A stretch of 64,000 nucleotides of DNA from positions 27,094,001 to 27,158,000 of the forward strand of contig OZ024745.1 in assembly GCA_964016885.1 (NCBI GenBank). Direction: 5' to 3'. This document shows, piece by piece, positions 10,964 through 63,445 of this stretch; within the stretch, counting starts at the first letter, position 1, and the number at the start of each line of letters is the position of its first letter. The notes beneath the pieces were generated by a model, which ran no database searches, was not told where the DNA came from, and saw nothing but the letters and a program-made list of their open reading frames with translations. This DNA comes from Eledone cirrhosa (taxonomy: Eukaryota). The position numbers and the translations under genes were made by a program.

Positions 10964-11213
10964 GATCAGATGACTATATATCATAATTGATCTGGTCCAG
11001 TTGAAAATAATTAACATATTTAAAAGACAGAGTGGCTCATCGGAACTTCAAAGGAATATAAATTAAATTAATGGGATAATGTTACATAATATAATGTTCC
11101 ATATATTGGTTTAATTTATATTCCTTTGAAGTTCCGATGAGCCACTCTGTCTTTTAAATATGTTAATTATTTTGACCTGAACCAGATCAATTATGATATA
11201 TAGACATCTGATC
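10964..11213. repeat. Inverted repeat, ~105-bp arms (10964-11068 / 11110-11213)
   Basis: ..aagacagagtggctcatcggaacttcaaaggaatataaattaaa mirrors tttaatttatattcctttgaagttccgatgagccactctgtctt.. Confidence 0.9.
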
Positions 11214-11250
11214 CAGAAATATTATATGGAGTAGCGAAACAATTGTAAAC
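11131..11250 (+). ncRNA. Hammerhead ribozyme-like motif (type I, variant core CCGAUGA, long helix II insert)
   Basis: gtt-CCGATGA-gccactc[~80 nt]gagtagc-GAAAC-aatt-GTA-aac. Helix I gtt/aac; helix II 6 of 7 pairs; palindromic helix III ACAAUUGU. Confidence 0.6.
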
Positions 11251-11480
11251 GGACATTATTATTGTTGATATTATTATTATTATTCTCTACATTCCTTACA
11301 TCAAACTAAAATATGTTGACAATCTTTTAATAATGTCTTCCTTGTGAAATTTGTGGTCTTGTTTTGCTTAACTAATGAATATTTCCAGCTCTGCGCACCT
11401 AACTTCTGCATGAACCCAGCCACCTAGCTGCTTTCTACTGCATATTGCACATTGAGCACATGCCTTTACGGTTTGGCTTC

Positions 11481-11711
11481 TGACTAGTGTGTGTTTATGT
11501 GCTTGTTGTTATTGTGCTTGTGTATGTATTTATTTATCTTATTTTATTTTATTTTATTTACTTATTTATACTTCTCTTAGGTCAGTGTTGTTTGTTTCAA
11601 CACCCAAACAAACAACACTGACCTAAGAGAAGTATAAATAAGTAAATAAAATAAAATAAGATAAATAAATACATGCACAATAACAACAAGCACATAAACA
11701 CACACTAGTCA
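11481..11711. repeat. Near-perfect palindrome, ~105-115 bp arms
   Basis: tgactagtgtgtgtttatgtgc..ttaggtcagtgttgtttgttt [caacaccc] aaacaaacaacactgacctaa..gcacataaacacacactagtca. Confidence 0.9.
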
Positions 11712-11896
11712 CCCAGCAGACACAACACTATACACACTAGTCACACAGCAAACATAACACCATACACACACGCAAACGCATGCGCAAAGAAGACAAAATA
11801 AAATAAATAAACAAGCAAATAAATAAATAAATATATAGACAGACTGAATAAAAAATGGCGTAGACATACAACACAACAGGAGGAAAAAATATAACA

Positions 11897-11936
11897 CCAC
11901 TGACGATGTTGCAGATGTGCAACGAAAGATTTATGT
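11897..11936 (+). ncRNA. Degenerate minimal hammerhead motif
   Basis: cca-CTGACGA-t-gttgca-gatg-tgcaac-GAAA-gatt-TA-tgt. Perfect core and 6-bp helix II; helices III and I each carry a mismatch. Confidence 0.5.
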
Positions 11937-12208
11937 AAATTATGTAAACTATATATATGTGTTTGTGTCTATATTGTATCTGTATTATTTTTGACCGTCG
12001 GTCAGTCAATGGCAACATTGAGGACCGAGTAAGTTAGATCGCAGATATAAAAGACAGCGAGAAGCGAAAACCAACCAAACAGTGAGTGTGTTCTGTTATG
12101 AATTCTGGCAATATTACACAAATATGACCCTCCCCAAGTATAACAATATTTGTTTCGACACACGATTTCATATAAAAAACCTCGCTAAACTAATATATAT
12201 ATATATAT

Positions 12209-12248
<40 letters not shown>

Positions 12249-12316
12249 GTGGAATACTGGAAGGTAATATCCGTAGTGGTAGAGCACTGTGGTTACACAA
12301 CAGTTAGTTCACCATA

Positions 12317-12356
12317 CCGAGAACAATTGTTTCACCTTAGCGAATCTTCAGCTCGG
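12317..12356 (-). ncRNA. Minimal type-I hammerhead ribozyme motif (left arm)
   Basis: Reverse complement: ccgag-CTGAAGA-ttcgctaaggt-GAAAC-aatt-GTT-ctcgg; helix II is weaker than in the right-arm copy. Confidence 0.65.
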
Positions 12357-12639
12357 GATGTGTATGGTTATAGGAACTGGAAGGAGAACCGTACGAACGC
12401 GCATGCACAGAAACTCGGTCACTTCACACAGGCAATAATAGACTGCGTGCGCGGGGTGTAAGGGGAATAACTGCGAAAGTCCGGAAAATTTTTGGTTCAA
12501 CCAAAAAACTTTCCGGACTTTCTGAGTTATCTCCATTACATCCGAGCACGCAGTCTACTATTGCCTGTGTGAAGTGACCGAATTTCTGCGCATGCGCGTT
12601 CGTACAGTTGTCTTTCCTGTTCCTATAACCATATACATC

Positions 12640-12679
12640 CCGAGCTGAAGATCCGCGAAGGTGAAACAATTGTTCTCGG
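12640..12679 (+). ncRNA. Minimal type-I hammerhead ribozyme motif (right arm)
   Basis: ccgag-CTGAAGA-t-cc-gcgaa-gg-t-GAAAC-aatt-GTT-ctcgg. 5-bp helix I, palindromic helix III, predicted cleavage after GUU at 12674. Confidence 0.75.
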
Positions 12680-12714
12680 TATGGTGAACTAACTGTTGTG
12701 TAACCAATTCTATA

Positions 12715-12756
<42 letters not shown>

Positions 12757-12846
12757 GTAATAATAATAAAATTGAAGACTAAAATCCAAAGATCCCGTTA
12801 AGGGTGAAAGCAGCGATTCTTTGCTTAAACTTTAATCTGTTATTTA

Positions 12847-13341: not shown

Positions 13342-13461
<120 letters not shown>

Positions 13462-13619
13462 TTTAGGTTATCAATAATGTAGTGATAATATATCGTTACG
13501 TTAGAGATGAACAGCGTACGTGCAGGTTTGCTCAACGAGTATAAATTATATTCCGGAGAAATGTAGAAAGGATGAATATAAAATGAAAGTGCTTTTGTTA
13601 AAAAAGGAATTTATTAGGT

Positions 13620-13735
13620 ATTGACATATGTTTCTGTAACAGACCGAATACCTATGTATCGCTGCTTGCGTAATCATATAATGTTAGCAAGTATTCGATA
13701 GCAAATGTATAATCAGTTGTCACTTCTTCAGAGAT
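13620..13735 (-). ncRNA. Hammerhead motif in the 3' region of Penelope-like element 1
   Basis: Reverse complement: atct-CTGAAGA-a-gtgaca[~75 nt]tgttac-a-GAAAC-atat-GTC-aat. Sense to the ORF, ~470 nt after its stop; helix I is imperfect. Confidence 0.65.
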
Positions 13736-14203
13736 TTTGGATAAACTGGATAAAATCAGAAAAATTGAAGTATTTATATTAGTAAAAGAGGAAGGAACTG
13801 AGGGGATAGAATATGACAGATGGTAAAATAATTTACTGCTAAACAAGTATATAATGGGTTTTTAATGAGAATACCATGAGTAAATCTAAATAAGAATTTT
13901 GGGAGTGCCAATTTTAATCTCTACTTGACCAACTGGACAGTGGACAGGGCTGGTCATTTGGTGCAGTAGTATTAATTATAAAGTGTCAATTGGGGAAGGG
14001 GGAGATTTCGATTGCTACTAAATAACATCAATGCTAGTAGCCAGCTGGTATATGCATTAGGGAATTGAATCAAGAATCAGAAATCTCATTTTATCTATAG
14101 CAGTTTGTATTAAAAGGTAAATAATAGAAGAGTTGATAGAATTAAGACTAATAAAGAATGTTCATATCTATTTTGACAATCAAACGGGGATAGAGACAGG
14201 CGT

Positions 14204-16387
14204 TCAATCCTGGTAGTATTTATAATATGAAAATGTAGATTTTAAGCGATGGTTACAGTATAACGATCGCTCTATTCTGTTATTTAATAAAATGTTTTTG
14301 GATTTCATAATACAAAATAATTCTACATTACATAATTTACAAAATTCCTGTCCATTGGAATATGGGGGGGGGGGGGCAGCCGCTATTATATCCCATTTTA
14401 GGTGAAATTGTTGGTTATTTTCACGCAGCTGCCAAGCCTTGTCTGCGAGTGTTGTTACATAACGCTGGTTTTCATGTTTTATCGAATAACGATGTCTATA
14501 AAGGCGTGATTTGAAGGAGGTGGCTGTAGATCCCACATAGTACCACTTCTGTCTATCCGATTCGATAGTACATTTGTATACGATGTTACGCTCAAGACAC
14601 TGATTGTTCAACGGACACATTCCTGGTTGGACACAGTTGCAATTATAATTTTGCGTTGTTGTATTGCCATGGATGGGTTGATGAGGTTGCTTATGTAGGA
14701 CAGGATGTTGTTTGTTGTTTTGTGATGTTATAGCTAATGTTTTACGTGTATTGTTATGTGTTGGAAGGCGTTTATACAACCGTTTTGCGTTAAGCTTTTT
14801 TATATGTTGTTCAATATTAGGGGCGGTTGAATATGAAAGTCGAATAGTGTTAGGGTTTAAGATTTTATTATATTTATGTGATGTTGGAAAGTGTTTTCTA
14901 ACTAATCGAAAGAATTTTGAGGGTAGATTGGTTTTAATAGATTTGTTATAGACCGGGTTGTACCAGATATACTCCCTACATCGCCTTCTGTTTGGTGGTG
15001 TGCGACTATTATTGTGTCTATTGCGGTAGTGTATGTATGGTGGTGATTCTGTGCTATTTCTACTCCTATGTGATTTATTTTGGGTGTTTTGGTGATCTTT
15101 GACTATATACTCTATATTATCTAGGTGACCGGCTTTCCTAAGTGCATCATCATAATACTCGGCATGTTCTTTGAAGGTTTGTTGGTTGGACGATAGGCGG
15201 GAGATTCTAAGAGAAACGTTTCTAGGGATGGATTTAATTATAGAGAGTGGATGGTTAGAACTCGTATCTACATATTTAAGGTTCTCATTTAGTTTATGGA
15301 ACGGTTTAATCGTATCTGTATTGAGATTGAAAGTAACATCAAGGAAATTGACCTCTTTGAGGTTATATTCAAATGTAATATTTAATCCTAGTTCCTTAAA
15401 AAGTTTTCTGATATTTTTACGCATCCTTTCTAAATTCTGGTTATTCATATGCTTAACTAATAGGAGCGCATCGTCACGGTAAATTCCACCGTGGAGATCC
15501 TTGAATTTTCCTTGTAATCTGTGGGTGATATAAATTCCCACAAGATCTGTTACTTCCGCCGAATCATTAGAACCCATAGTGATATCAAGGATTAAATATT
15601 ACATTTGAATATAACCTCAAAGAGGTCAATTTCCTTGATGTTACTTTCAATCTCAATACAGATACGATTAAACCGTTCCATAAACTAAATGAGAACCTTA
15701 AATATGTAGATACGAGTTCTAACCATCCACTCTCTATAATTAAATCCATCCCTAGAAACGTTTCTCTTAGAATCTCCCGCCTATCGTCCAACCAACAAAC
15801 CTTCAAAGAACATGCCGAGTATTATGATGATGCACTTAGGAAAGCCGGTCACCTAGATAATATAGAGTATATAGTCAAAGATCACCAACCCAGTAGCTAT
15901 CATCGAATTTAACTATAGTTTTTCTCGCTTCCATAATAATTTTAATTTCAGCATCCGTAAGGTCGGAATTATCCTTAGCGAACGAAAGAGCTTCGTGTAG
16001 AGTATCAGGTGAAATTGAGGAATAATATTCATCAATATCAAACTGAATAAATTTTGATTTTTTCTTATCAGTAATGTTATTAAACCATCTTATTGCTTCA
16101 TGGGTGTTACCCCATAGTTTAATCTCTACTTTAACCTTAACTTGGGGGATAATTCTGTCTAGTATATATTTGCTAATTTTACCTATATCAGATTTAGAGG
16201 GGCATATAAGTCTAATATTAGGGTTAGTATCGAAGTTTACCTTGTGGTCCTTCAGGTTGAAGGATGGTATAGCTGGTGTTAAGGGTTGCGTTCTATCGTC
16301 AATACAAAGTTTTTTAACAATATCACATGCCGAGTTGTTGATGTTTTTAAGTGTGGCTTCATTAGTTTTCCTGTATTTTTTATGCAA
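14204..16387 (-). pseudogene. PLE reverse transcriptase / GIY-YIG ORF split by a 301-bp inverted self-insertion
   Basis: Two ORF pieces (15875-16387 and 14204-15577). 15588-15888 is the reverse complement of 15089-15389. Confidence 0.88.
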
Positions 16388-16469
16388 TTCCTTACGGATG
16401 AAGTTATTGTAATATAAAAGTTATTGTTATATAACTTATATATTGTAATATATAAGTTATTGTTATATA

Positions 16470-19778: not shown

Positions 19779-19830
19779 ACTCAGGAAAGAAGGTTGACAT
19801 GGTTTGCTATACAAAAAAGGTTTTTAATCT

Positions 19831-19943
19831 CATAGCTGACAATTGTTTCTCTGAACTGGTAGGTCTAGAGATCGCTATTCGCTTATTTTCACGTTACTCG
19901 ATCGCCAATACAAAATTATAACCAGTCAGATCTTCGGAGCATG
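19831..19943 (-). ncRNA. Hammerhead motif in the inverted pseudo-LTR of PLE 2
   Basis: Reverse complement: catgct-CCGAAGA-tctgactggt[~60 nt]accagttcaga-GAAAC-aatt-GTC-agctatg. Confidence 0.7.
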
Positions 19944-19999
19944 CGAGAATGAAGAAAATACACAGGCAAGAAAAGAATAAACACATACAATAGCTTTAT

Positions 20000-22098
20000 C
20001 CAGCGTGAACTACATAAAAATATAAAAAAACAAATGAATCTACACTCACCAGCATTAACATGGAGGGCCTCAAGATAGTTAATAAACTCGGAATTCCAGA
20101 TAGAACCGAACCGCTAACCCAGTGCAACCCAACATTTAACCTGAAGGATCACAAAAATAACTTTGAAACTAATCCCACCATTAGATTAATATGCACATCC
20201 AAGTCAGACATAGGTAAAATTAGCAAGAACATTCTAGATAGGGTAATCGCACAAATAAAGGGTAAACTAGAAATCAATTTATGGGGCAACTCTAACGAGG
20301 CAATTAAATGGTTCAATAAAATACAAAATAGGGAGACGTGTAACTTCATACAATTTGATATAGACGACTACTATGCATCCATATCCCCAGCTACCCTAGA
20401 TAATATTTGCCCAAAATAACTCTGATCTTACCCATGATGAAATTGAAATAATAATTGTTTCTACTTTAGGCACAAGGCCAGCAATTACCCAGTGCATTAC
20501 TGGTACTTTATTTTATCGACCCCGTAAGGATGAAAGGCAAAGTCAACCTCGGCGGGATTTGAACTCAGATAGCGGCTAGAAGGACTATCATAAAATTTGA
20601 AAATAGCTACTGGGTAAGAAAGGATAGAATAAATAGCTTCGATATAACAATGGGATCAAATGATTCTGCGCAAATCATAGATATCGTGGGGCTATTCATA
20701 GCACACAACCTACATAAGGAATTCAGTAACCTCCAAGGAGGAATTTATAGGGACGACACGTTACTTATAGCTAGGAACCTAAACAACCAGAGCATGGAAA
20801 GACTAAGAAAAAATATTAGAATATTCTTCAAAAAACTAGGCCTAAGTATTACCTACGAACTAAACCATAAGAAGGTAAATTTTCTAGATGTGACTCTAAA
20901 TCTAAATACTGGATTAATAGAACCTTTCCACAAAAATAATGAAAATCTTGCCTACATTAGTTACAACTCAAATCACCCCAAATCCATAATTAGATCCATA
21001 GCACGTAGTATATCCCTCCGAATATCCCGCTTATCCTCAAACCTAGAAATCTTTAACGAGCATGCTGACTATTATAATGCAGCATTACGTAGGGCCGGTC
21101 ATAAAGATAAACTGCAGTATATAGTGAATAAGGACAACGTAAACAATCCTAGTAATTACTACTCCAACCGCTCACATAATAATAGAAATAACTTGACTAG
21201 ACATAGGGTTGGACACATAACACCTGGAGTAAACGGCCAAAACACTAATAACGTAAACCCAAGAAACAATAGAAGAAACAGACAAAGAAAATACCTATGG
21301 TTCAACCCAATATTCAACTCCTCTATAAAAACTAGACTGCCCTCTACATTCTTTAAACTAATAGATAAACACTTCCCTATCTCGCATAGATATCACAAAA
21401 TACTCAATAGATCTACTATAAAACTCTCATACTCAACAGCAGCTAACATAGAATCACACATACGCAAGATCAACCACAGAAATATCTCTAGTAAATCAAC
21501 TGCACCTATACATAACGTAGCACCTAATTATAAGCACAAACACATCACAACATCACAACCACAAGCGCATACAAACGCGCAGCAGCAAAACCCCATTGGG
21601 CATATATCACAACCCACTTATAACAGAGTACTAAACAGGAATGTAAAAGCTGCACAAAATAGCGCCTCAAACTGTAACTGTCACCTACCAGATAGGTGCC
21701 CATTGGCGAACAGATGTCTCGATTTGAGCCTAGTGTACATGTGCACGGTCATCTCGGGTAACTCCACCTGGAATTACATAGGATCCACCGCGGGTTCTTT
21801 TAAAAAAATATGGTATGTGCACAGACACTCAATGAAAAACCGTGCACTTATGGGTTCCACAACCCTCGCCAAAAAAATATGGGAACTGAAGGACAGCAGC
21901 ACTAATTACAGTATCAACTGGTCGAAGTTGTCGGCTGCTAAAACCTATAGTACAGGGATGTCCCACTGCGGGCTATGTGATCTTGAGCTTTTGTATATCC
22001 TCAAAAATGTAAAAAGGCTACTTAACAATAAGTTAGAAAGATCTATCTTCTGCAGACATAGAATTGCCACTAAATTCATAAGATTCAAACCTCCGTGA
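20000..22098 (+). pseudogene. PLE RT / GIY-YIG ORF disrupted by a small deletion (~20403) and an antisense SINE (20454-20570)
   Basis: The frame resumes as AARRTIIKFENSYWV..FDITMGS after the SINE, collinear with element 1. Confidence 0.85.
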
Positions 22099-22411
22099 AT
22101 CGAACCAACACAACATAGCTTTAAATTAGGATACCTACTACCCACAGAAATATAGTCATTAAGTATACTATATCCTTCACAAGTCTATACCACACAAATG
22201 TCTGTAAGTACCTCATCTACCCACAAACTTATTCCTTCTCAGTTGCTGCCATCATTTGATCCCAAATCCTAGTTTTTCTCAAATCACTACTACAATGTAA
22301 CTTTACCTTCCTTTTGCCATAATTACAATTAGCACGCTTATCTCTCTGCATGTATGTATATGTTTGTACGAGTGTATATTGATGTGTATGTATGTGTCTA
22401 TGTACACATGC

Positions 22412-22561
<150 letters not shown>

Positions 22562-22936
22562 ATATGCGTATATTACTTCGTTAACCTCTGTATTAACTCA
22601 ACAACTATTTAGCTTTGACAGTGTTGTCCCACTCATGTATACTATTGAAGATGAAAAGAAAGACTGTAAACGCTGGCTTATCTTTATAATTTAAAATTGA
22701 TACACACTTCGATACTCTGTACATGCCAAACTCTTACTTTTGCCTCATGACAACTAGTTTTACACGCCGTAACGTTAGATACATTATACCCCCCACCTAA
22801 GTAATGTCAGGGTCTCCTCAAATAATTTATTAATAGCATTGTTGTAATTGTTGTTATTGTTCTAATTGAATGCCATTACTACTTCATATAGTAGCCTGTA
22901 TATTCTTTTCTTGCCTGTGTATTTTCTTCATTCTCG

Positions 22937-23049
22937 CATGGTCCGAAGATCTGACTGGTTATAATTTTGTATTGGCGATCGAGTAACGTGAAAATAAGCG
23001 AATAGCGATCTCTAGACCTACCAGTTCAGAGAAACAATTGTCAGCTATG
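22937..23049 (+). ncRNA. Hammerhead motif in the 3' pseudo-LTR of PLE 2
   Basis: catggt-CCGAAGA-tctgactggt[..]accagttcaga-GAAAC-aatt-GTC-agctatg. 10-bp helix II with one bulge; one helix-I mismatch relative to the 19.9-kb copy. Confidence 0.65.
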
Positions 23050-23308
23050 AGATTAAAAACCTTTTTTGTATAGCAAACCATGTCAACCTTCTTTCCTGAT
23101 TTATTATTACTCCAAGTGTTTACAACATAGGAATTACAGCATACCCGCAGCATCACTATGAAAACGCCTTGTTGAGTCAAACCAAAGCAAGCGTTGATAT
23201 CATCCACTACCTGGAATACCATAACTGGACTTTACCTAAGTGGACTGCATTTAACTATTATTTGTTACCCCGTATATGTATATATATATATATATGTATA
23301 TATATATG

Positions 23309-24479: not shown

Positions 24480-26995
24480 AACTTTGAATAACTTTGAAAT
24501 GTTTTGGCCAGTATTGGCCCAGGCCATGTCTAACTTAATAGCACCACCTGGCGAAGTCTTTCAATTCAGGATTTGGGCACCATGGCCCATTCGAGAAGAG
24601 AATTACTGTTTGCGGAGACATATCCGGGTGTGGGTGGTTTGTCCGGGATTACTTGGAGGAATTTGTCCAAAGACTTCTTGAATTTTGAGTGGTCAGTTTC
24701 TGTTTTGATGTGTCCTGGTGTGATGTTGAAGAGAGCAGGGCCGATTGAGGTGAAATAATTGTGCCGTATTGTTGTTATGAGTTGTGATTTAGATTTTTGA
24801 ATGGGACGGATAGCACGGGGCCCAAGCCTTGGGTGTATCATTTGGGCAGTGATGATGGAACATTTTCCACATCATGCAGATAATATAACGCTCACGGCGA
24901 CGTTGGAGTGAGTAAAGTTTCAGGTTTTCCAATCGACCCCAGTAGTCAAGGTCTGACATGCCATCTATCTTTTTCGTGATTGCCCTTTAAGGAGCTTCAA
25001 GTTTCATGATACTTTGTTTCGTGTGGGGAGACCACAGTGGACAACAGTATTCAAGGTGTGGTCGGGCGAAAGTAGAGAAGAGAAGGATAATGGTGCGGGA
25101 ATCTCTCGACTGGAAGGTTCTGAGGATCCAGGAACACATTCTGCCGGCTATGTCAACCTTGCTGCTTATATGCGTGGTCCAGCTTATGTTGCTGTCCACG
25201 GTTACTCCCAAGTCTCTGATGTTGTTAGATGCCACGAGAGTTTCCCCGGAGGGAAGGGAGTACGGGAGTTTCAGAGCATCCTCTTTTCCAAAGTGGATCA
25301 GTTCGAATTTGTCCTCGTTCAGTAACATGTTGTTCTTTTCTGCCCATTGGGTAACAGCCAGTAGGTCTGACTGAAGGCTTATCCGGTCATCCACGCCATT
25401 GATGACCTTTTGGAGCTTGGAATCATCAGCGAAAATTTTAATGTTGCTGTGTTTGATGATGTCAGTGATGTCATTAATATAGATGATGAAGAGAAGTGGG
25501 CCCAACACAGTGCCTTGTGGGACTCCACTACTGACTTTGGCTGGGCTTGATTTGACTCCCTCAACTACAACATGTTGGGTTCTGTTTGACAGGAAGCTCT
25601 TGATCCACTGCAGCAGCTTTCCAGTGACACCAATATTGGACAGCTTTCTCAGTAGAATGTTATGATCAACCCTGTCAAAGGCCTTGCTGAAATCAAGGTA
25701 GATAACATCAGTGTTGGAACCCTCTCCCAAGGCTCTCAAAATGTCATCAAAGTGATGCAGTAGTTGCGTCAGGCAATCCCTTCCATTACGGAATCCATGC
25801 TGGTTGGAGTTCAGCATATTGTTACTCTCAAGGAAGTGGGTCATTCGCGATCTCACCACTCGCTCAAATACCTTAATGATATGAGAGGTGAGTGAGATTG
25901 GACGGTAATTCACGGCAAGGGATTTGTTTCCCTTTTTGAAAACTGGGACAACAGACTGGGATAGAAGGTTTTCTGGCACATATCCAGCATCCAGTGAGTT
26001 CCGCCACAGATTGGCAAGAGGAGAAGCAAGTTGGTGTTGACACGCCTTCAGGACACAAGCAGGGAACCTATCGGGACCTACTGCTGAATTATGCTTGATT
26101 TCCTTTATTGCCGCCAAGACATCAGGGGCGCCAAACGTTATGTCCGATAAGGTGTAATGGGGAGTAACATCGCCGATACAGCCCAGATCGGCCATATCAG
26201 GATTGCTGAAAACAGAGCAGTATTGTTTCTGCAGTATCTCACCCATGGTTTTAGCATTGTCTTGAAGAGTGCCATTTTCATCAATTAGAGGGCCAACAGT
26301 AGAGCCAGTGATTTTGTGTTTTTTTGCAAATGAAAAGAACACTTTGGGATTGAGTTTGATCTTCTCAATGGCCCAGGCCTCTTCAGCTCTTCTCTGATTG
26401 TTGATGAGGGACATTATGTTGTTTTGGAGGTTATGTTTTTTAATCTCTAGTGATGAAATGGCAGTCAAGTTGATGTGTTGCTGCTGACAGTATTTCAGCT
26501 TGTTGATTTTTTTGTTCGTTCTCTTAATTTTTCTGATGAGCGTTTTTCTATTTCTAGGGATTCTGCTCTTAGATTTGTTTATAGTTCTTAATGGGGTGTG
26601 TTTAGCACATATGTTTGTAACAGTGTCCACAAATGTCTGCCAGGACTTTTTGATGTTAGTGGGTGTATGAGTGTGCGTGAAGGACCAGTCGACATGTGCA
26701 AGATCATGACTGATCGCTTCCCAGTTTGCATTGTGGAAATCCATAGCGTCAAACGGATGGACAGGAGAGATGACATTGGGTTTGTATATTGGACGGTGGA
26801 ATCTCAGATCACAGAGAACCATGTCATGATCAGAGAGTAGAGTTTTCTCCACTGCAATATTGTGGATATTGTCAGTGTGATTGCTGAAAATTAAGTCTAG
26901 GACGTTTTTGTGGCACCTCGTTGGTTCGAGCACTAGTTGGGATAGGAAGAAATCATCCATGAAGTCAAGAAGTGATTCCACAGCTTCCCTGTCAG
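24480..26995 (-). mobile_element. CR1/L2-group LINE copy A, 5'-truncated (endonuclease C-terminus + RT), premature stop at 24987
   Basis: [61 protein letters not shown]; 3' tail (tttcaaagtta)2. Confidence 0.92.
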
Positions 26996-27265: not shown

Positions 27266-27296
<31 letters not shown>

Positions 27297-27297
27297 C

Positions 27298-27330
<33 letters not shown>

Positions 27331-46124: not shown

Positions 46125-49066
46125 TGTTTCTAATTATTGCCACGAGGGCGCAAAAGAAAGGGACAAATACAAAGGGGGGAGTTTACACAAAAGAACGAGT
46201 AAAAAAAACAAATAACAAATATAAAATTAACAATAAAGTCCTCAATAGGGAGGAGGCTTTTTGGGGGTCGCGCACACCTCCCAAAAAGTGTGCAACCCTT
46301 CTCCTCAGGAGCACAGAGAGAGGGTGCTCCCTTGTTCTGCCATCTTTTTCACCTACAGGCTGATATAGAGAGAAGGCCCATTCACACGGGCCATTCTCGC
46401 CACTTTCAGCCACCTTTCATAAAACTGGCTGGGGTGGAGCACCTCTCTCTACATCCTGATCCTTCTTCCGAAATCATATCGGAAGAAAAGGACCAGTTGT
46501 TGGCCAGAGAGAAAGGTGTCTGACCTCAGTCCTTTCAAACGCGTCCACCATACAATCTCTTTCACCATGGCTATTACGCACAAGAAACACCGCCTCTCCT
46601 TCATTTTTGAGGGGGGGGGGCTTGATCGTTATAATAGACTCGGTGGTCAACCGGTCCCACCCGTGACAGCAGTCGTTCGACATAGCCCCACAGATCGGCG
46701 ACGCCCGGGCAGTGTACCAATGCATGCGCGACGGTTACCTCGTCACACACGCATCTGGGACAGATCTTTTTCGAGGGGTCCCTACCCGGGCGCCCGTGTC
46801 TGTAGAGCTTTTCTAGAATGGGCAGAGCCCCTCGGTAGCACTGCCAGGCCAGGGACCTCTGGAAGTTGTCAATGGGTCCCGGGCTAAATGTCCTACCGAA
46901 CAGGCTGGCCAGTTCGTCTTCCTCCATGCCTAGGGTTTCTCCGAGGGCGTCGTCGCACCTTCTGCGTACCAGCCCTCTATAGAATGTCGAGGTGGAGTCT
47001 CCACTGATAGCCGGGTCCGCCTGCCAGAGAGCCGTGAGCGCCTGCGCACACTCGGTGTGCCAGGCGCCCAGTTTTCTCGGTCTTTGCTTGACCCATGATT
47101 GCAGCTCGATGAGTGAGACGAGTCTCAGAAAGGTTCGTCTCACAAACGGGGCCCACACCAGTTGACCGATGAGGAATACCTGGAGGTGCCGTAGCCTTAA
47201 TGCGTGTTTACGCATCAGCAGCCACGGCAACCCCAGCCCTCCTTTCAAAGGGTGTTGACAGCAGATGGATCTCCTCACCAAAGGGGCCCGCCTCTTCCAA
47301 AGGAATTGGAAGAGTGCGCGCTCCATTTTGGTGAGCGTTTCCCTTGGGCAAAGCACGACGGTCATGCGGTAGTAGATGACGGACGCTATATAAGTGTTCG
47401 CCACCTCCGCCCGACCTTTCCGGGATAGTTTGCACTCGGCCCACTTCTGGGTTAGTGCAAACACCCTGTTCGTTACCTCACCCCAGTTCTTCTCCACCTG
47501 GAGATCTGGTCCAAACCAGACCCCGAGCAACTTCACCAGGCCCTCCGTCCGGCGTCCGACGACGCAATCGGAGGGCATCGATTTGCCCCTCGACGTGCCG
47601 AGTTGCAGCCCGATCGACTTGTCCCGGTTCAGCTTAGCCCCTGTAAACCTTTCGTACTCCTCCAGTAAGGTGCCGATCGCCCCGATTTCTGAGGCGGTCG
47701 ACACCATTACTGTTACGTCATCGGCGTAGGCCGACACCGTTTTCCGCAATCCCGGTTCCAATGGGATGCGCTGCAACAACTCCAACTTCCGCAGCAGTGG
47801 CTCGAGGGCCAATACATACAGAAGAGAGGAGAGAGGGCATCCTTTTCGGATGGACCGCGTGATTTCGAACGGCTCCGTGAGGTAGCCGTTCACCTTGACT
47901 CTAGAGCAGATGCGGCTGCTGTGTATGGCAGTGATCCAGCCCCTGAAAACGGGTCCGAAACCTGCTGCCGCTAGCACTGCATCCAGGTAACCATGGTCGA
48001 CCCTATCGAACGCCTTAGATTGATTCAAGTTGATCAGGCCCCCACCAAAGCCGGGTTCGTTCTCAACCCTCTCTATAATGTATCGCATAAGGTGGACCTG
48101 GACGGGATAGCACATGTCTGCGCATCTCCCACCAGGTTGCCCACGACAAGCGCCAACCTCTTTGCTAACACCTTGGCCAAAATCTTTAACTCTGCATTTA
48201 GCAGAGTTATGGGCCTGAAATGACTTATTTCGTCCCCCTTGTTTTCGCCCTTCTAACGAAACTACGCCCTTGGTCACAGAACAGGGAATTCTCCCGTTCT
48301 GTTGCCAGTTGCAGTAGACCGCCTCGAGGGAACAAGTCCGGCATAGCTAGATATAATTCGTATGGAAGACCATCGAGACCCGGGGATTTGCGTTTGCCGC
48401 ATCGGCTCAACACGTCCCCTATCTCAGCAGCTGAAATGGGCCCCTCGCAAGTCTTCGCCTCCTCGTCCGAAAGACGCGGCAGGCCGTCGAGGTATGGACC
48501 GAAGTCCACATGGCCATCCCCCCCCCCCCGCGAACAATCGGGTAAAGTGCCTTTGCTCAAGGATCACCCGTCCATCCTGGTCTCGCAAAGACCGGATAGT
48601 GGATCTAATCCCTCTTTTGGCTTCTGTCACGCGGGCCCAGCTAACAGCTTTGGTCCCCTCGTTTCCTAGAGCACCTATTTTGCTTCGGACAACGCAGCCT
48701 TCGTGCTTCGCGTCAAAGAACTGGCCCAAGGCCGTTATCGACGCTAGCACTCTGGCTACGTCGCCGCTTCTAATTGCCTCTTCTACACTATCTACCAACT
48801 CCCTTTCCTTCCTATTTCTATCTGAGGCTAACTCCTTACTAAATCCTATTGAAACTACTCTAATCTCTCTTTTGAGAGATCGCCACCACCTGCTGTTGAC
48901 GATCGCTCCCGTCAACCACTCTTTAACTAAAGTACTAATCCGGTCCCTGTACACTTTACTTGCAGGTAAGGACAAGTTCAGTTTCCAGTAACCGGGTCCC
49001 TGTCTATGGGTTCTATCAAGGTTGAGTATGCAGGTCACTAATTTGTGATCCGAATAGCCAACCATG
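46120..49066 (-). mobile_element. Tx1/L1-clade LINE copy 3 (diverged, frameshifted; includes endonuclease C-terminus)
   Basis: SDHKLV..GPGYWKLN (48424-49065), KSPGLDGLPYE, RT 46601-48277; bounded by (gata)n. Confidence 0.9.
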
Positions 49067-51989: not shown

Positions 51990-52244
<255 letters not shown>

Positions 52245-52252
52245 CGATATAG

Positions 52253-52489
52253 GCTCGCCATGTAAGAAAACCGATGCTCTGTGCTTGGTGTGTGGTGATC
52301 GAGCATCTGGCAAACATTACGGTGTTCTTAGTTGTGATGGATGTCGCGGTTTCTTCAAAAGGAGCATTCGTCGAAATCTCGATTATGTTTGCAAAGAAAA
52401 TGGATCCTGTGTTGTCGATGTTGCTCGAAGGAACCAGTGCCAGGCGTGTCGATTCAAGAAATGCTTGGAAATGAAAATGAACAGAGATG
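52253..52489 (+). CDS. Nuclear receptor NR2E subfamily (PNR-like / NR2E6-like): DNA-binding-domain exon
   Basis: [69 protein letters not shown]. Acceptor ag at 52251-52252, donor gtgagt at 52490; 237 nt, phase 1-1. Confidence 0.95.
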
Positions 52490-52566
52490 GTGAGTGTGAG
52501 TATTTTAATTCTTCATTGTTTGATGACCATCTATAATATATCTAAGCTTACTTAGAATGAGTTAAT

Positions 52567-53004: not shown

Positions 53005-53805
53005 AATCGGTAGAGGGTCGGACATGCTTTCTAACATAGTTATGTCCCTTTACGATCTGAGTTCAAATCCCGCCGAGGTTAACTTTGCCTTTCATCCTTA
53101 CGGGGTCGAAAAATAAAGTACCAGTAATACACTGGGATAATTGCTGGCCTTGTGTCAAAAATAGAAACAATTGTAATGACTCTGCCTATTGGCTGCTCCA
53201 TTAAAATATTATATACATTGTACTACATTTTAATTTTTTATTATTTAGCATTGTAATTGTAGTGGTAGTTGATTTGCAGAATCGTTAGTGCGATGGACAA
53301 AATGCTTTGCGGCATTTAGTTACGGCCCTTTACGTTCAGAATTCAAGACCTGCCGAGATTAACTTTGCTTTTCATCCTTCTGACGTGGCTGAAATAAGAA
53401 CTAGTGAAGTACTTGTGTCGATATAACCGACTTTGCCCTACTCGCCAAAATTACTGGCTTTGTGCTTAAATTAGAAATAATTATTGGCAGTATCGGTAGA
53501 GGGTCGGACGCCATGCTTTGCAGCAAAGAGTTACAGCCCTTTACGGTTTAAGTTCAAATCCCGTCGAGGTTAACTTTGCTTTTCCTCCTTACGTGGTCGA
53601 TAAAATAAAGTACCAGTAATGTACTGAGTAATTGCTGGTCTTGTGCCAAAAGTACAAACAATTATTATCTTGTAACGGAAATATGTGTGGAGTTGAAGGC
53701 AGAATTGTTAGAACGGCAGATTAAATGCCGCGTGGTATTAGTTTCGTCCCTCTATGCTCTAAATTCAAATCTCGGCGATATCAATATTATCCTTCATCCT
53801 TTTGG
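53005..53805 (+). mobile_element. Four tRNA-derived SINE copies (intronic)
   Basis: Repeated B-box gagttcaaatccc and core gcctttcatccttacggggtcga. Confidence 0.85.
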
Positions 53806-53834: not shown

Positions 53835-54695
53835 CTTAGCCACTTTGGCGACAACTTAGCCACCTTGGCGACAACTTAGCCACCTTGGCGACAACTTAGC
53901 CACCTTGGCGACAACTTAGCCACCTTGGCGACAACTTAGCCACCTTGGCGACAACTTAGCCACCTTGGCGACAACTTAGCCACCTTGGCGACAACTTAGC
54001 CACCTTGGCGACAACTTAGCCACCTTGGCGACAACTTAGCCACCTTGGCGACAACTTAGCCACCTTGGCGACAACTTAGCCACTTTGGCGACAACTTAGC
54101 CACCTTGGCGACAACTTAGCCACCTTGGCGACAACTTAGCCACCTTGGCGACAACTTAGCCACCTTGGCGACAACTTAGCCACCTTGGCGACAACTTAGC
54201 CACCTTGGCGACAACTTAGCCACCTTGGCGACAACTTAGCCACCTTGGCGACAACTTAGCCACCTTGGCGACAACTTAGCCACCTTGGCGACAACTTAGC
54301 CACCTTGGCGACAACTTAGCCACCTTGGCGACAACTTAGCCACCTTGGCGACAACTTAGCCACCTTGGCGACAACTTAGCCACTTTGGCGACAACTTAGC
54401 CACCTTGGCGACAACTTAGCCACCTTGGCGACAACTTAGCCACCTTGGCGATAACTTAGCCACCTTGGCGACAACTTAGCCACCTTGGCGACAACTTAGC
54501 CACCTTGGCGACAACTTAGCCACCTTGGCGACAACTTAGCCACCTTGGCGACAACTTAGCCACCTTGGCGACAACTTAGCCACTTTGGCGACAACTTAGC
54601 CACCTTGGCGACAACTTAGCCACCTTGGCGACAACTTAGCCACCTTGGCGACAACTTAGCCACTTTGGCGACAACTTAGCCACCTTGGCGACAAC
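53835..54695. repeat. 20-bp minisatellite, ~43 copies (cttagccaccttggcgacaa)
   Basis: Highly homogeneous tandem array with an occasional c>t variant; no spacers. Confidence 0.97.
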
Positions 54696-55212
54696 CTTTC
54701 GAGACATGTAAAAATGCCAAATACGTACTTCCTATTCCAATGACTTAGATATTCCACCTCAAAATACCATCTATCCTTGTCTTATCAAGTGCGTGTGTGC
54801 GTTGATGTTCTCTCTGTTTCAGTCACTGCCCCCGTCTCTCTTGCTCTCCCCATTCACTATTATAAATAAATGAGAGCCCACACGCTGGTCGCCCCCCAGG
54901 GCCCGGTTGACAGAATAGAGAAGGCGTTTCCCCGGAGGATGGTGAGGGAGATGTGCATCATTGTGATGAAAGTAGATGAGCTGCGACTCATCTACTTTCA
55001 TCACAGTCGAACGAGGATTCGGGACTCACCGACGTCACTTTTTTAAATAAGAATTATGGACATACACCATCATATTGATGAGTATTGGCGTAATTGTCTG
55101 TGGTCCCCGACCCTCAGCATTGATGATGGGAAGAGACCAAAACCATAAGTTGTGGCTTTGTTAGAAATCAGTATTTTGTAATATTATTTTTGCATATTAT
55201 TAAGTATTAATG

Positions 55213-56008
55213 GGGCAGCGGATTGACGGAATCGTTAAACCATTGGACAAAATGTTGTACGGTATTTAGTTACAGCGCATTACGTTCTGAGTTCAAATCG
55301 CACCGAGTCAACTTTACCTTTCATCTTTCCAGAGTCAATAAAATATAGTTTCAGTCAACTTTCCCTTCCCATAAAATAACTGGCCTTGTACTAAAATTAT
55401 AAATCATTATTGGCGATGGATTAGCAGTATCAGTAGAGGGTCGGACGCCATGATTTGCAGCATAGAGTTACGGCTCTTTATGATCTGAGTTCAAATCCCG
55501 CCGAGGTTAACTTTGCCTTTCATCCTTATGGGGTCGATAAAATAAAGTACCACTGGGGTCGATTTAATCGACTTTCCCCTCCCCCCAAATTACTGGCCTT
55601 GTGCCTTTTTTGGCAGTATCGGTAGAGGGTCGGACAACATGCTTTGTAGCACAGAGTTACGCCCCTTTCTGATCTGAGTTCAAATCCTGCCGAGGTTAAC
55701 TTTGCCTTTCATCCTTACGGGGTCGATAAAATAAAGTACCAGTAATGCACTGGGTAATTGCGGGCCTTGTGCCAAAAGTAGAAACAATTATTATATGGAT
55801 TGGTAGTATCGGTAGGGCATCGGACAACATGCTTTGCGGCATAGAGTTACAGCTCTTTACTTTCTGAGTTCTAATCCCGCCTGGTTAGCCTAGCCTTTCA
55901 TCCTTACGGAGTCGATAAAATAAAGTACCAGTAAAGCATTAAGTCGATTTAATCGACTTTCCCCTCCCCTCCAAATTGCTGGCCTTGCGCCTAAATCAGA
56001 AACCATTA
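55213..56008 (+). mobile_element. Four head-to-tail tRNA-derived SINE copies
   Basis: Copies at ~55213-55410, 55411-55606, 55611-55790 and 55797-56008. Confidence 0.88.
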
Positions 56009-56512
56009 TTATATATTATTAAGTTTTAATGACTTTCGTCGATACATCCACCCGATACATTCCACCCGATACATTCCACCCGATACATCCACCCGATACA
56101 TTACTTCACTGTATCTAAAAGGCAAATTAGGACATCCTGAAAATCTTTAAATCATGTCTAATCCATTTTCCTCGATGATCTTATAAATCGAAACTTTCAC
56201 TCAGATCAAATCTGCCACTCTCGCCAGAAACGTAGCAAGAGAATGAGAAGAATGGAAGTTGTCTTCGGGTTCAGTTATGAAGAGGTGCAATATTTCCTCT
56301 GACTTCTCATGCCTGTTTATATATATTTTTAGTTTGTAGATTTTGAAGAAGGAGCAGTGCCCATATCCTGACGGTTGCCGTAAGTTGAGAATGCTAAATG
56401 TAATTGTGTCCCTAGGGCGCTGAGATCACTTGCTATTCCACTGACTCTTTCCCAAGTTTCTTAAAATTTCCTGCCCGATAACTCGAAGTTATAGGTTTAT
56501 ATCGTGTATAGT

Positions 56513-56891
56513 CAGACCTGCCAACCGCTAAAAACCCAAACGGGGAGTACCATGAAAAAAAGTTCCCCAAAACGGGGAGAAATGAGGCAAAATGGGGACA
56601 TTTTACATAATTGTTTCTATTTTAGGCACAAGGCCAGCAATTACCCAGTACATTGCTGGTACTTTATTTTATCGACCCCATAAGGATGAAAGGCAAAGTT
56701 AACCTCGGCCGGATTTGAACTCAGATCGTAAAGGGATGTAACTATGCTGCAAAGCATGTCCAACCCTCTACCGATACTGCCATAATGAAAGCTATACCCA
56801 AGAGAAGCTATATCACAAGAGAAGACATCTCTTACCCACCACAAAGTGGGTGGGATATCTCTCTATGGGACGGGGAGAGTTGACAGGTCTG
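56513..56891. mobile_element. MITE (probably hAT-like) with a nested antisense SINE (56608-56782)
   Basis: TIRs cagacctgccaac / gttgacaggtctg; flanks tatagt / tatagc. Confidence 0.65.
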
Positions 56892-58997: not shown

Positions 58998-60476
58998 TAT
59001 TATGATATGATTATAATCATCTTTTACATCATTTTTCTTCTAGCTTTCTCATTGTAAATATCTTGTGTTGTCAATAACGACGTCCGTGTAACTTCATATT
59101 ATTAAGATGTATTAATGTGGTGTGGTAAATAAATACATATACACCAGGTCCGAACACAATAGCACCAAACTCATTGTCCGATAGCTCGATCAGATTTAAA
59201 GTACCACAGACACACCGTATGTCACAAAGACACCCAACGTCTCCATCAGAAGTTACAGGTCCAAGCATAAATATAAATGTATTCTAGAGAACTGAATGTA
59301 CTTTTGTTCAAAGAAGAATATCTCGAAATCACAGGATTAACCTCCAATCCTTTAAAATTACTATTTAACCAACATATAAACACAAACTATTAAGGTGTGT
59401 GATCAAATGGTTAGGGTGTTCGACTTACAATTATAATACCGTGAGTTCGACTCCTGTTTCAGATTGATTTCTAATTTTTGGCACAAGGCCAACAAATTTG
59501 GGATAAGGGTAAAGTTGAATAGATCAACCCTAATACTTGACTGGGACTGTATTTTATCGACCCTGGAATAATGAAAGGTAAATAAATTTAACCACGGTTT
59601 CTGAACATTGGCTGACACTTTGATTCGCAATAATTCTAAGGTGGAGCTTTGGAATAAACATACCACCGAAAACGTTTCTGAATCTGAAAAATAGTGAAGA
59701 GGTGGGGTGCAGTGTCATCCAGTGTCACCCCCCCCCCCCCCACACACACACAAACCCTACTTGACGGTGGAACCGGTCTAATGACTAAAACCAGTAAAAG
59801 AATTTTTAAAAAAAACGTTCTTACATTCCGTAGAATAATATTTGAATATGCAAATTTTCATGTGAAGGCGTGTAGCCTAGTGGTTACGGTGTTGGACTTA
59901 CAATCATAGATTCAATTAGGGTGTTGGACTTACGATCATAAAGTCATAGATTCGATTCCTGGAACAGGTTGTGTGTTATGTTCTTGAGCAAAGAATACAT
60001 TTCACATTGTTTCAGTATACTTAGCTGAAAATGAGTACCAGTTGTGACTGGGGGTTTAACTCTGTGATGAACTGGCATCTTGTCCCGGGGGAAGTTTTGT
60101 CGCCTGGAATTATTGGGAATTAGAGTGTCAGCCAAGAATGTTCCGAAACCGAGGTAAAATTTACCTTTCATTCTTCCGGGGTTGATAGAACAAAGTCCCA
60201 GTAATGTAGTGAGGTTGATTTATTCAACTTTTCCCTTGCCCAAAATTTGATGGTTTTATGGCAAAACTCTCAAGATATGCCCGGCCTAATGAACCTCGGG
60301 GCTTGAGATAGACTTTAGAGAAAGTATATGCTGGTAATGCATATAAAATATTCCCACCCATCCAAGGTCATATGTACAGGTCTTCAAGTTTATTTATTTG
60401 TTTATGTTTTGGAGGTTGTTGTTTGTTTTTGTTGTTGTTGTTGTTGTTTTTACCCCTTTTTTCATGTTATTTACAG

Positions 60477-61018
60477 ATTGGATTATGCCCAGTTTCACCA
60501 GTACAGCACCCCAGTGGCTCTGCATCATGAACTACCCGGTTACAATCCTGGTCAAGTATTCCAGCCAATTACAATCCAGTTAGCTGACCAAAATAGCCGC
60601 GCAGCTACTGCTGCTTTTCTACACCCTCACCATCACCACCATCCAACACATCTACCACATCACTATCCGAATCACTTGTTACAACCAGGCACTACACCAA
60701 GTGGAGAAATGGGCTTCCGACCAGCTGTTGTGAGGATTCCATCTAGCGAGCCAAACGTACGTGGAATTGGAGGAGGAGGAGGAGATGGCGAAAGAGGAGG
60801 AGGGGGAGGAGGAGGAAGCAACAGTGGTTGTGGTGATGGTAGCGGTGGTAGTAGTGGTGGGGGTAGTGGTGGGGGTAGTGGTGGTGGCGGTGGTGGCAGT
60901 AGAAATGAGAATACTAACATCGATTGTACTATCAAAGAAAACTGTTCGTCACGTGTTTCTGGAGAATGTTCCACGCCGTCGCACATGAAACGCGAAAAGA
61001 CCGAGTCAGACAGCACAG
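60477..61018 (+). CDS. NR2E receptor exon: His- and Gly-rich hinge
   Basis: Pyrimidine tract + ttacag| (phase 2); LDYAQFHQYSTP..HPHHHHHP..GGGGG..KREKTESDST; donor ag|gtaaat in phase 1. Confidence 0.8.
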
Positions 61019-62068
61019 GTAAATTGATTCAGTGCTTAACTAGAGTTAACTTTGGATATATGGAATAAGTACAAATAATATACAGAAATCGTTTCTCTGG
61101 CAAACAAAACACAACTGTCGTTGTGTCCTAGAACCCAATATCAGTTTATATTTAGCGAACCTAAATCAGCGAATTGACAGAGTCGTTAGAACGACCAATA
61201 GAATATTTAGCGTTATTCCTTCCAACTCTCTGCGCTCTGAGCTTATATCCCGCCAAGGACAACTTTGCGTTTCGTCCTTTCAAGATCGATAAAAAAATAC
61301 TTTGTATAGAAGTCAATTCTCTCTCTCTCTCTCACTCTCTCTCTCTCTCTCTAAGAAGAAGAAGAAGAAATTGGCTGTATTCAGACCTGGAGAGAAGTGA
61401 GCTTAAAATGCCCAAGAAACGCCTACGACTCCACCAGGAGTTACGTGTCCATACATACAAATCAGAGCCATATAATAAGATTTCTTAAGATTCAAGATCA
61501 ACTCGAGAGATACTGAAATATTATGTAATAATACGATGTTAATTCTAAATATACAATTAGAAAGCAGTAAAATACTTTACAATCGTTTGAAATTCTTTGT
61601 TCTATACAGCTGAGAAAGAATTTATAAGTTTGGCCTTTAAGCTGGAATTGGGAGAGTCGTTAAAGTGTTGAATTAAATGCCTCGGTATTTGTTCTGGCTC
61701 ACTGTGCTCTGAGTTCAAATTCTGGTGAAGTCAATTTTAGCCTTTCACCCTTTCAGGGTCGATAAATAAACTACAAGCCTTGGGTTGCTGATTAGACAGA
61801 AATTGTTAAAATATCAAACGAGATGCTTTGAGATATCTGATTTAGTCATGTGCGTTATAAGTTGCCAGAAGTTGCAACCATCAGATAGTAACAGCAATGG
61901 AAAGACCCAAGAAAACACTCCTTGGCCTAATTGGACAATCGGTTCCTTTCTTTTCCATTTTTTTCTATGAAATTTCTCTTCTCAATAGAATGTATCTACA
62001 ACTGCTTTGGTATTAAATTGAAAAATGACGTTTTTCCATATTGTTTTGTTTTATTTCATTCTATTTAG

Positions 62069-62461
62069 AATCTTCTGGAGGCACTTCACAGGAGAATTCA
62101 GTTAGCACAACAACATCTATTCATCCACCGACAACTATAAGCGGCAACCAGCCTCAAACCTTTCCATACAAAATGATTCCAGCATCAGCTGTAAATATGA
62201 ATCCTTCATCATACCAACCACCGTTTAGTATGTTAACTAACCCTCTTACTGGAGGAGACCAACATTTTTATGTCAATAATTCCAGTGTAGAAAGCGTCTA
62301 CGAAACAGCAGCACGCCTCTTATTTATGTCGGTGAAATGGGCGCGAAACATTCCATCGTTTCTTCAGCAGCCATTCCGCGATCAAGCAATTCTTTTGGAA
62401 GAAAGCTGGAGTGAATTGTTTATTCTTAGTACATCACAATGGTCAATGCCAATCGACATAG
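62069..62461 (+). CDS. NR2E receptor exon: start of the ligand-binding domain
   Basis: ESVYETAARLLFMSVKWARNIPSFLQQPFRDQAILLEESWSELFIL; tttag|aa to ag|gtaagt; 393 nt, phase 1-1. Confidence 0.93.
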
Positions 62462-63409
62462 GTAAGTAAATATTCTTGAGATTGTTTTGTTCGGTCTTAT
62501 CTGTATCGATAACTTACAAATTCTAATAAAAATAAAAAGGAAATATTCATGACTGGCCACGATTTACGCACCTCTGACAGACCATAGATTTGCATTTCCG
62601 AAGTAGAGGCCTTACCAAGTGATTTGTGTAAGACCAACAATCGCCCATGCATGCAAGTCTTCCTTCTCCACGACACTGATATTGTCCAAGGAAAGGACAA
62701 GTGCTGATACAGATTAACACCTGTGTCGTTACAACTCATATTTTTATAGCTGAGTGGACAGGAACAACGTAAAATAAAGTATTTTTCTCAAGGACACGAC
62801 GTACCGCCCGGTCTCGGAATCCAACTCACGATCGGGAGCCCAGCGTCTTAATCAATAAGCCATGTACCTTCTCAGAGATAAAAACAGCCGTTATATGATA
62901 ACGTATGTTTAAGATATTTTTTAAAGGCGTGCCAGCTATGACCATCCTGACATTTTGTATATAAGAGACTACATTGTTTAAGCGTCCTTCTTTACTAGTG
63001 TCTTTACAAATTTTCTGTAATCTTAATTGCCTTTCTATTCGACTTACGTACAGTGTTTGTTTACATACGTCTGTCTGCCTGTCTGCTGACATCTGAAAGC
63101 TGTTGTCTAGTTATCTAGTTAAAAAGACGGTGGAAGAGTTGTCACGGCCCCTTAGAGCGTCTAGCCGGTATCTGGAAGATATGGGGGTTTCAATTCCTCC
63201 TAGCGACTGATGACAACATATTTTCCCGTCTTTTAAGGGTTTTCACCCTATTTTATAAGCTATTACATAGCATCTCTGCGCTTGAACACATCATCCTTTA
63301 AACTTATATATATAATATATATATATATGTATGTAAAAGGTAAACAGAAATAACAACACAATCGGTACAGGAATATATTAGGTTAATGCTTGAAATAGAA
63401 GGAAGAGGG

Positions 63410-63445
63410 TCTTAACGTTTCGGACGCTAGTCCTTCATCAGAAGA
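63410..63445 (-). ncRNA. Minimal PLE-type hammerhead motif, antisense within an NR2E intron
   Basis: Reverse complement: tctt-CTGATGA-a-ggac-tagc-gtcc-GAA-ACGT-T-aaga. Canonical core, 4-bp helices I and II, loopless palindromic helix III. Confidence 0.8.

Follow-up and report, generated by a model that had tools for sequence, protein, structure and literature searches.

Predicted type I hammerhead ribozymes of Penelope-like elements and retrozymes in a 64-kb stretch of the Eledone cirrhosa genome

The 64,000-nt stretch of the Eledone cirrhosa genome analyzed here (positions 27,094,001 to 27,158,000 of contig OZ024745.1, assembly GCA_964016885.1; hereafter the window, whose own numbering is used throughout) carries 12 motifs that, judging from their sequences, probably are type I hammerhead folds. 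They would belong to the 3′ pseudo-long terminal repeats (pLTRs) of Penelope-like elements (PLEs), five from the Hydra clade and one of the Neptune/Nematis type, and to two tandem retrozymes devoid of an open reading frame (ORF), and would cut their own transcripts as paired (double) hammerheads. Cleavage is likely to be slow or absent in families B and G, which have a U4C core, in family C, which lacks a proximal helix I, and in family J, which carries an A13C change. All 12 motifs, listed as sequence diverse in a first-pass annotation of the window, are present, with coordinates within about 10 nt of the motif end, but they amount to nine independent families (A to I), because A, B, and E each occur twice as inverted copies. 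A tenth family, J, had been overlooked. The motif sites are as follows.

11131..11250, plus strand: family G hammerhead (core start 11134, H17 11247), with a U4C core, a 95-nt helix II, an 8-nt palindromic helix III, and a 3-bp proximal helix I.
Core start 11900, H17 11933 (within 11481..12190), plus strand: family F hammerhead, with a 17-nt helix II that has a bulged first base, a 6-nt G-U-dependent helix III, and a 2-bp helix I.
12317..12356, minus strand: family A hammerhead, inverted copy (core start 12351, H17 12322).
12640..12679, plus strand: family A hammerhead (core start 12645, H17 12674), with a 5-bp helix I, a bulge, and a 6-bp distal helix; the 2-bp helix II is flanked by U.U and the palindrome is 8 nt long.
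13615..13739, minus strand: family C hammerhead-like motif (core start 13731, H17 13623), with an intact core, a 90-nt helix II, an 8-nt palindrome, and a 1-bp proximal helix I.
19835..19940, minus strand: family B hammerhead of the inverted 5′ pLTR (core start 19937, H17 19838), with a U4C core and an 81-nt helix II.
22940..23045, plus strand: family B hammerhead of the 3′ pLTR (core start 22943, H17 23042), with a U4C core and one additional helix I change; the proximal helix I has 3 bp in family B, as in family G.
30939-31063, plus strand: family D hammerhead (core start 30944, H17 31058), with a 96-nt branched helix II.
32115..32180, minus strand: family E hammerhead, inverted copy (core start 32172, H17 32123).
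32316..32381, plus strand: family E hammerhead (core start 32324, H17 32373), with an 8-bp helix I, a 31-nt helix II, and an AU-only palindrome.
36503..36921: inverted pair of family J, with motifs at 36628-36658 (minus strand) and 36766-36796 (plus strand), a U3-A8 core, A13C in the GAAA box, and a 6-nt palindrome.
40681-40768, minus strand: family H hammerhead (core start 40763, H17 40686), with a U3-A8 core, a 57-nt helix II, and a 10-nt palindrome.
63410..63445, minus strand: family I hammerhead (core start 63441, H17 63414), with a bulged base, G10.1-C11.1, and a 4-nt palindrome.

The annotated type I architecture, with CUGANGA or a variant of it, is borne out by the core segments, which stand in type I order and are exact at 8 of the 12 sites, carry U4C at 3, and carry U3-A8 at 1; it falls short in family C, with its 1-bp helix I. 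A perfect palindrome combined with a proximal helix I of 4 to 8 bp is found at seven sites (both copies of A, D, both copies of E, H, and I), but the palindrome claimed for every site is self-complementary in family F solely via G-U pairs. Helix III measures 8 to 10 nt in seven of the nine families (all but I and F), so that the earlier label of minimal PLE hammerheads, meaning those with no helix III beyond the conserved bases, suits family I, which is a textbook PLE-type hammerhead, and at best partly family F, and was otherwise mistaken.

Chance matches in AT-rich, foldback-rich sequence are a practically negligible explanation, which both the shuffled sequences and the reversed patterns refute. 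A strict descriptor, requiring exact CUGANGA and GAAA boxes, a palindrome without mismatch, and at least 4 bp of helix I, matched 6 of the 12 sites, compared with 0.02 in 100 local dinucleotide shuffles, and a descriptor admitting U4C and U3-A8 cores matched 9 of the 12, compared with 0.22, so the hit rate is not similar to that of shuffled sequence. On 600 kb of evenly spaced sequence (60 stretches of 10 kb), this tolerant descriptor found 28 loci versus 2.0 in shuffles. What speaks for chance is that a loose descriptor with two core mismatches has a background of 1.7 loci per shuffle and that 1 of the 28 sampled loci is a satellite false positive. Genome-wide, a family A-type pattern (mostly, not only, family A) gave 8,102 matches versus 5 in the reversed control, and a further pattern gave 4,479 versus 0.

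The data suggest that there are ~1.2x10^5 such motifs in this 3.0-Gb genome (95% range, 0.8-1.9x10^5). This is a minimum, since 3 of the 12 sites in the window and helices of odd length escape the descriptor. Though high, the number has a precedent in the 126,247 motifs of the axolotl (PMC7229834; Li et al. 2026, bioRxiv 10.64898/2026.07.22.740005). In 1.6 Mb of genome sequence, 45 motif clusters were found, 9 of which were dropped before family counts as satellite, duplicated, or weak; the 36 families kept have 20 different palindromes, and further families beyond this catalogue carry odd-length or G-U palindromes. The window is threefold richer in motifs than the genome sample and is likewise enriched in dinucleotide microsatellites (18% versus 6% in the 60 sampled stretches); the dense motifs are attributed to the abundance of microsatellite targets and to most copies being 5′-truncated ends. 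As the first-pass annotation had anticipated, standard models pass over these motifs: a search of the window gave no Rfam match at gathering score, no hammerhead family was among the Rfam matches listed (150 of 490), and local Rfam scans of 10700-12820 and 63300-63520 returned no hammerhead family at E values up to 10.

Families A, B, C, E, and G are predicted to be 3′ pLTR hammerheads of different Hydra-clade PLEs, and families D and H to be ORF-less tandem retrozymes with one type I hammerhead per unit. The carrier elements in the window are the following.

13458..16420, minus strand: PLE-1, Hydra clade (family C), 5′-truncated, with ORF pieces at 14204-15598 and 15875-16420.
19781..23278, plus strand: PLE-2, Hydra clade (family B), with an ORF at 20018-22098 and inverted pLTRs on both flanks.
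11481..12190, plus strand: end of a Neptune/Nematis-type PLE, 5′-truncated, bearing family F.
30213..31251, plus strand: family D, a single repeat of an ORF-less, retrozyme-like tandem element with units of ~1.05 kb.
40447..40830, minus strand: family H, an incomplete unit of a tandem retrozyme with repeats of 591 bp.

The sense hammerheads of families C and B sit 476 and 847 nt, respectively, past the endonuclease ends of the two PLE ORFs in the window, and the distance from hammerhead to ORF is fixed within each family and family specific. Among 30 loci each, sense PLE sequence was found upstream at 6 for the A pattern, 14 for B, 22 for C, and 10 for G; for F, this was so at 9 of 20 loci. 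In three long loci elsewhere the family E motif lies ~1.4 kb past the stop of another Hydra-clade ORF. A full-length family C element elsewhere consists of 3,115-bp tandem units with an intact 781-aa ORF, whose product bears RWK, DKT, CxCX5C, CxxC, and CxH, the diagnostic motif set of the Hydra clade (PMC8557442). The CxCX5C linker and the CxxC and CxH around the catalytic E/N are present in A, B, C, and G (the A, B, and G proteins being compared from the reverse transcriptase [RT] core or thumb onwards) and also in an E-family endonuclease fragment; an RWR/RWK region and DKT are visible in the E proteins. Pfam gave no informative family for the Hydra-clade proteins, whose placement rests on comparing motifs with the published alignment by eye. 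The family F protein, with a CX4CxxC linker and CCHH, conforms to the CX2-5CxxC linker and CCHH before or in the C-terminal GIY-YIG domain and is therefore of the Neptune/Nematis type, the two not being told apart. The linkage to ORFs in A, B, C, E, F, and G and the ORF-less tandems in D and H uphold the earlier proposal of a PLE and retrozyme system, and its embedding in (TA)n holds as well: a TA run follows within 400 nt in 39 of the 41 A copies, all 31 B copies, 57 of the 64 C copies, 30 of the 31 E copies, and 38 of the 41 G copies. Families B, C, D, E, F, and H are young, as many of their copies are 99-100% identical; in family F, all 40 scored copies are 100% identical.

Both PLE ORFs in the window are interrupted, that of PLE-1 by a 301-bp inverted duplication at 15588-15888 and that of PLE-2 by a 123-bp repeat insertion at 20448-20570. 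The window copy of family G has no PLE ORF and is accompanied by a partial foldback copy at 10951-11055 on the minus strand; the family D unit holds an internal 249-bp duplication (30250-30752). Two Hydra-like ORFs upstream of family I copies were considered as its partner and rejected, since other sequence intervenes. The family I hammerhead lies antisense between exons of a nuclear receptor gene (exons at 52240-52533, 62029-62466, and 63457-63999 on the plus strand, encoding zf-C4 and a ligand-binding domain), which is putatively NR2E-like and whose introns hold several repeats besides this motif.

The palindrome of helix III is kept in every family examined, including C, without a proximal helix I, and J, with A13C. 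When the search did not require it, 23 of 71 matches were palindromic, compared with 0.2 of 11.6 in shuffles. When the requirement was limited to the two outer helix III pairs, all 18 multicopy clusters (some of which come from loci fetched with palindrome patterns) proved to have a complementary innermost pair, as did 8 of 12 single copies but none of 5 shuffled matches. The innermost pair is impossible in a hairpin and therefore points to intermolecular or double-hammerhead pairing, in keeping with the earlier statement that the palindrome suits dimers.

Under the double-hammerhead and circle scheme of Cervera and de la Pena 2014 (PMC4209133), a transcript spanning two pLTRs or tandem units would pair both palindromic helix III strands, the paired hammerheads would cut at both NUH sites, and the unit-length RNA would be circularized. 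RT primed at TA targets could then run round the circle, placing both ends downstream of the cut and yielding tandem and inverted copies. The copies of each family stop within (TA)n at either of two fixed positions, which lie 35-315 nt 3′ of the predicted cut, and in 31 of the 35 inverted pairs scored, one 3′ end is short and the other long (p about 3e-6 on the assumption of independence, which does not hold for all of these pairs); in PLE-2, these ends are at +59 and +236. The one-sided tail is about 65-180 nt here, compared with the published 30-40 bp for PLEs.

The same observations could be read differently. The conserved job of the motif might be to bring two element RNAs together through its palindrome, much as the dimer-initiation site of retroviruses does. 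Two RT-RNA complexes could then prime at the two ends of a single DNA break, and cutting would be secondary, attenuated, or dispensable. The retention of the palindrome even in C and J, the complementarity of the innermost pair, and the short and long ends of the inverted pairs would all fit, and Naiad PLEs multiply without canonical hammerheads (PMC8557442). However, double-hammerhead cleavage explains the palindrome equally well, and a one-sided tail is a published PLE feature that needs no dimer, the 35 pairs, moreover, not all being independent. Beyond their own defects, families C and J retain the core, and the majority of the 36 families retain both core and helix I, which points to selection on catalysis. 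We consider pairing as the primary role unlikely and favor paired hammerheads that cut.

Most of these hammerheads differ from the published Hydra-clade ones in their helix II, which exceeds 30 nt in 24 of the 36 catalogued families and reaches 79-97 nt in 10. In 19 copies with a long arm (the one in the window, two descriptor matches, and 16 for which core and spacing were the sole selection criteria), 94.7% of 395 cells are paired, with 43 two-sided changes; none of 500 shuffles scored as high and slid controls reached 27-45%, a comparison that is not a probability because kinship of the copies inflates it. The claim that pairing is kept across unrelated helices thus finds support in covarying helices, but fails for family C with its 1-bp helix I and is weak for family F. 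Within the arm, 5 of 8 predicted pairs covary; a second covariation set used copies selected for pairing and is therefore circular. Among arms of at least 50 nt, 9 of 16 fold with z below -2 and 7 do not, and G10.1-C11.1 is present in only 11 of 36 families. The long arm is likely to be a conserved accessory domain making tertiary or protein contacts. In the arm of the B clade, covarying helices enclose a 5x5 internal loop that is conserved and could form tandem A.G/G.A pairs (columns 64-68 and 83-87 of alignment A3; about 22983-23006 in the window); this loop is a candidate protein-binding site. A D-like hammerhead at locus L070 (minus strand, position 2943 of that strand) has a 13-nt helix III, the longest seen.

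The combination of a U4C core with a long arm occurs at 4,243 genomic loci, versus 3 in the control, and comprises several subfamilies. U4C is present in 37 of 37 B and 38 of 38 G copies, all fetched by likeness to U4C queries, whereas 3 of 3 incidentally sampled copies of related subfamilies have U4; U4C is a possible rather than an established ancestral state of the whole long-arm clade.

Two families carry fixed defects. In family C (1,952 copies versus 0 in the control), helix I consists of a single contiguous pair in all 39 copies of one set and in 23 of the 25 copies that could be scored at 30 additional loci, the two sets partly overlapping; the core, the helix II base, and a compensated palindrome are kept. 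The sister family C′ has a 5-bp helix I in 21 of 21 copies; the two are 63% identical in the endonuclease region, and both keep the core and a palindrome that differs between them by a compensated double change. The 3′ arm of family C has an 8-nt perfect complement inside helix II (-7.5 kcal/mol), compared with at most 5 nt in 17 other long-arm families, and a pseudoknot could possibly stand in for helix I; the family is too young for covariation, with scattered variants only among 100 listed copies. An intron restoring helix I was rejected, its acceptor lying 14 nt too far upstream and the acceptor G being A in many copies. Contigs of unrecorded kind from four runs of one study show 3′-biased depth, no clear spliced joint, and no molecule ends, and speak neither for nor against the RNA forms. 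A noncircularly permuted (SGC/CSG) hammerhead, which by definition has permuted C, G, and S blocks and forms all three stems (PMC10085705), was rejected by inspection: the block order is C-G-S, and the single other candidate S block lies within helix II, where A15.1-U16.1 together with a second pair cannot form. In family J, all 13 distinct copies carry A13C, and its sister family has GAAA. Position A13 is essential for the hammerhead. The two arms of the family J pair are 99.5% identical, copies that are 100% identical exist elsewhere, and 3 copies were found in the 600 kb of sampled sequence; the copies inspected show no ORF upstream.

Fixed defects in young families are what would be expected if the motifs were hitchhikers, once functional or parasitic on PLEs and now passive, with C and J simply having lost them; hammerheads parasitizing PLEs have been raised as a possibility by Craig et al. 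(PMC8557442). However, compensatory changes across diverged families weaken this for most of them, and C and C′, despite their divergence, both retain the core and the compensated palindrome, so passive carriage is very unlikely.

Several observations weigh against the preferred reading of PLE and retrozyme hammerheads that cut as pairs. At all 12 sites the hammerhead fold lies 1.7-7.8 kcal/mol above the minimum-energy fold of the monomer. An 8- to 10-nt helix III could close as 2-3 bp plus a tetraloop, and invertebrate ribozymes with such a helix III cut as monomers; with monomer closure possible, cleavage may not depend on dimers. All mapped 3′ ends lie downstream of the cut, as expected for a circular template but equally for uncut read-through RNA. 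Families C and J have spread though their defects should impair catalysis. Regarding the carriers, no PLE ORF was found upstream of family D (0 of 30 loci) or family H (0 of 20 loci), leaving both without a partner, and no partner element was found for family I.

A more elaborate, if rather unlikely, possibility is that the PLE hammerhead has been partly repurposed: the palindromic helix III would serve as a dimerization signal that links a pair of RT complexes so that insertion is two-ended, the covarying arm of 80-97 nt would be a protein-binding domain, and catalysis would be tuned down in the U4C clade and given up or rewired elsewhere, with C using its 8-nt helix II strand as a pseudoknotted stand-in for helix I and J having A13C.

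Much of the system is already in print: PLE hammerheads whose helix III is palindromic and which cut as dimers, Hydra-clade elements inserted in (TA)n, retrozymes, U3-A8, U.U at the base of helix II, and 2-bp helices. Published Hydra-clade PLEs (Craig et al. 2021, PMC8557442) share the C-terminal GIY-YIG domain, RWK and DKT, the CxCX5C linker, CxxC/CxH, and (TA)n targets, and their hammerheads are likewise sense, near the 3′ end, frequently with U.U flanking helix II, and with a near-palindromic helix III of 9-10 nt; one Octopus bimaculoides Hydra family is already tabulated there. In contrast, the core halves are separated by no more than about 26 nt in the 26 published Hydra rows of that paper, compared with arms of up to 97 nt here, and none of the Hydra rows has U4C, A13C, or a missing helix I, all of which are found here. 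One plant PLE-X row with a ~55-nt helix II provides some precedent for long arms outside Hydra (PMC8557442). The metazoan PLE type I hammerheads described by Cervera and de la Pena (PMC4209133) also sit in pLTRs, form many families of diverse sequence within one genome, and have a palindromic helix III; the U3-A8 variant and a 2-bp helix I in D. virilis are described there too, and cleavage as dimers followed by circle formation is proposed. Of the families here, I and F come closest to these minimal, small-palindrome hammerheads, whereas most families here have an 8-10-nt helix III and a long helix II.

Metazoan non-LTR retrozymes, for which a PLE origin has been proposed, are ORF-less tandem units with one type I hammerhead each, as in D and H, but the D unit (~1.05 kb) is slightly above their 51-972-bp range and its long arm also differs (PMC7229834; 10.64898/2026.07.22.740005). 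The natural core variants compiled by Perreault et al. 2011 (PMC3088659) include U3-A8 covariation, the U10.1-U11.1 mismatch, a 2-bp stem II, and stem I-II pseudoknots, as well as a viroid U4C variant that is weak in vitro yet viable; here, U4C is a property of thousands of loci with long arms. A13C and the 1-bp helix I have no counterpart in the available part of that paper. A literature search found no octopus hammerhead description beyond that of Craig et al. and no description of long-arm hammerheads.

Other repeats in the window include non-LTR retroelement copies with RT matches at 24491-29486, 37708-39500, and 43696-48441, among them two near-duplicate pairs (24491-26313/27675-29486 and 43696-46073/46111-48441). 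A dispersed short repeat family has many copies (3092-3487, 5716-5978, 9497-9715, 20448-20570, 53006-53668, 55186-56012, and 56602-56786), one of which, 20448-20570, is the insertion in the PLE-2 ORF. Two minisatellites are homogeneous, at 140-697 (37 bp, 15 copies) and at 53835-54695 (20 bp, 43 copies, 98% matches).

As the system is known overall, the gain lies in variants and test cases, not in a new kind of element: the value is in the long-arm clade and in the natural pairs of defective and intact sister families. In addition, some 10^5 structured motifs are shown to form a class that escapes Rfam and descriptors built for short helices. The role of hammerheads in PLEs is an open question (PMC8557442, PMC7761336). 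Young, intact elements are directly comparable here with their sisters, C without helix I with C′ and its 5-bp helix I, and J with A13C with its GAAA sister, and such pairs bear on whether PLE hammerheads must cut.

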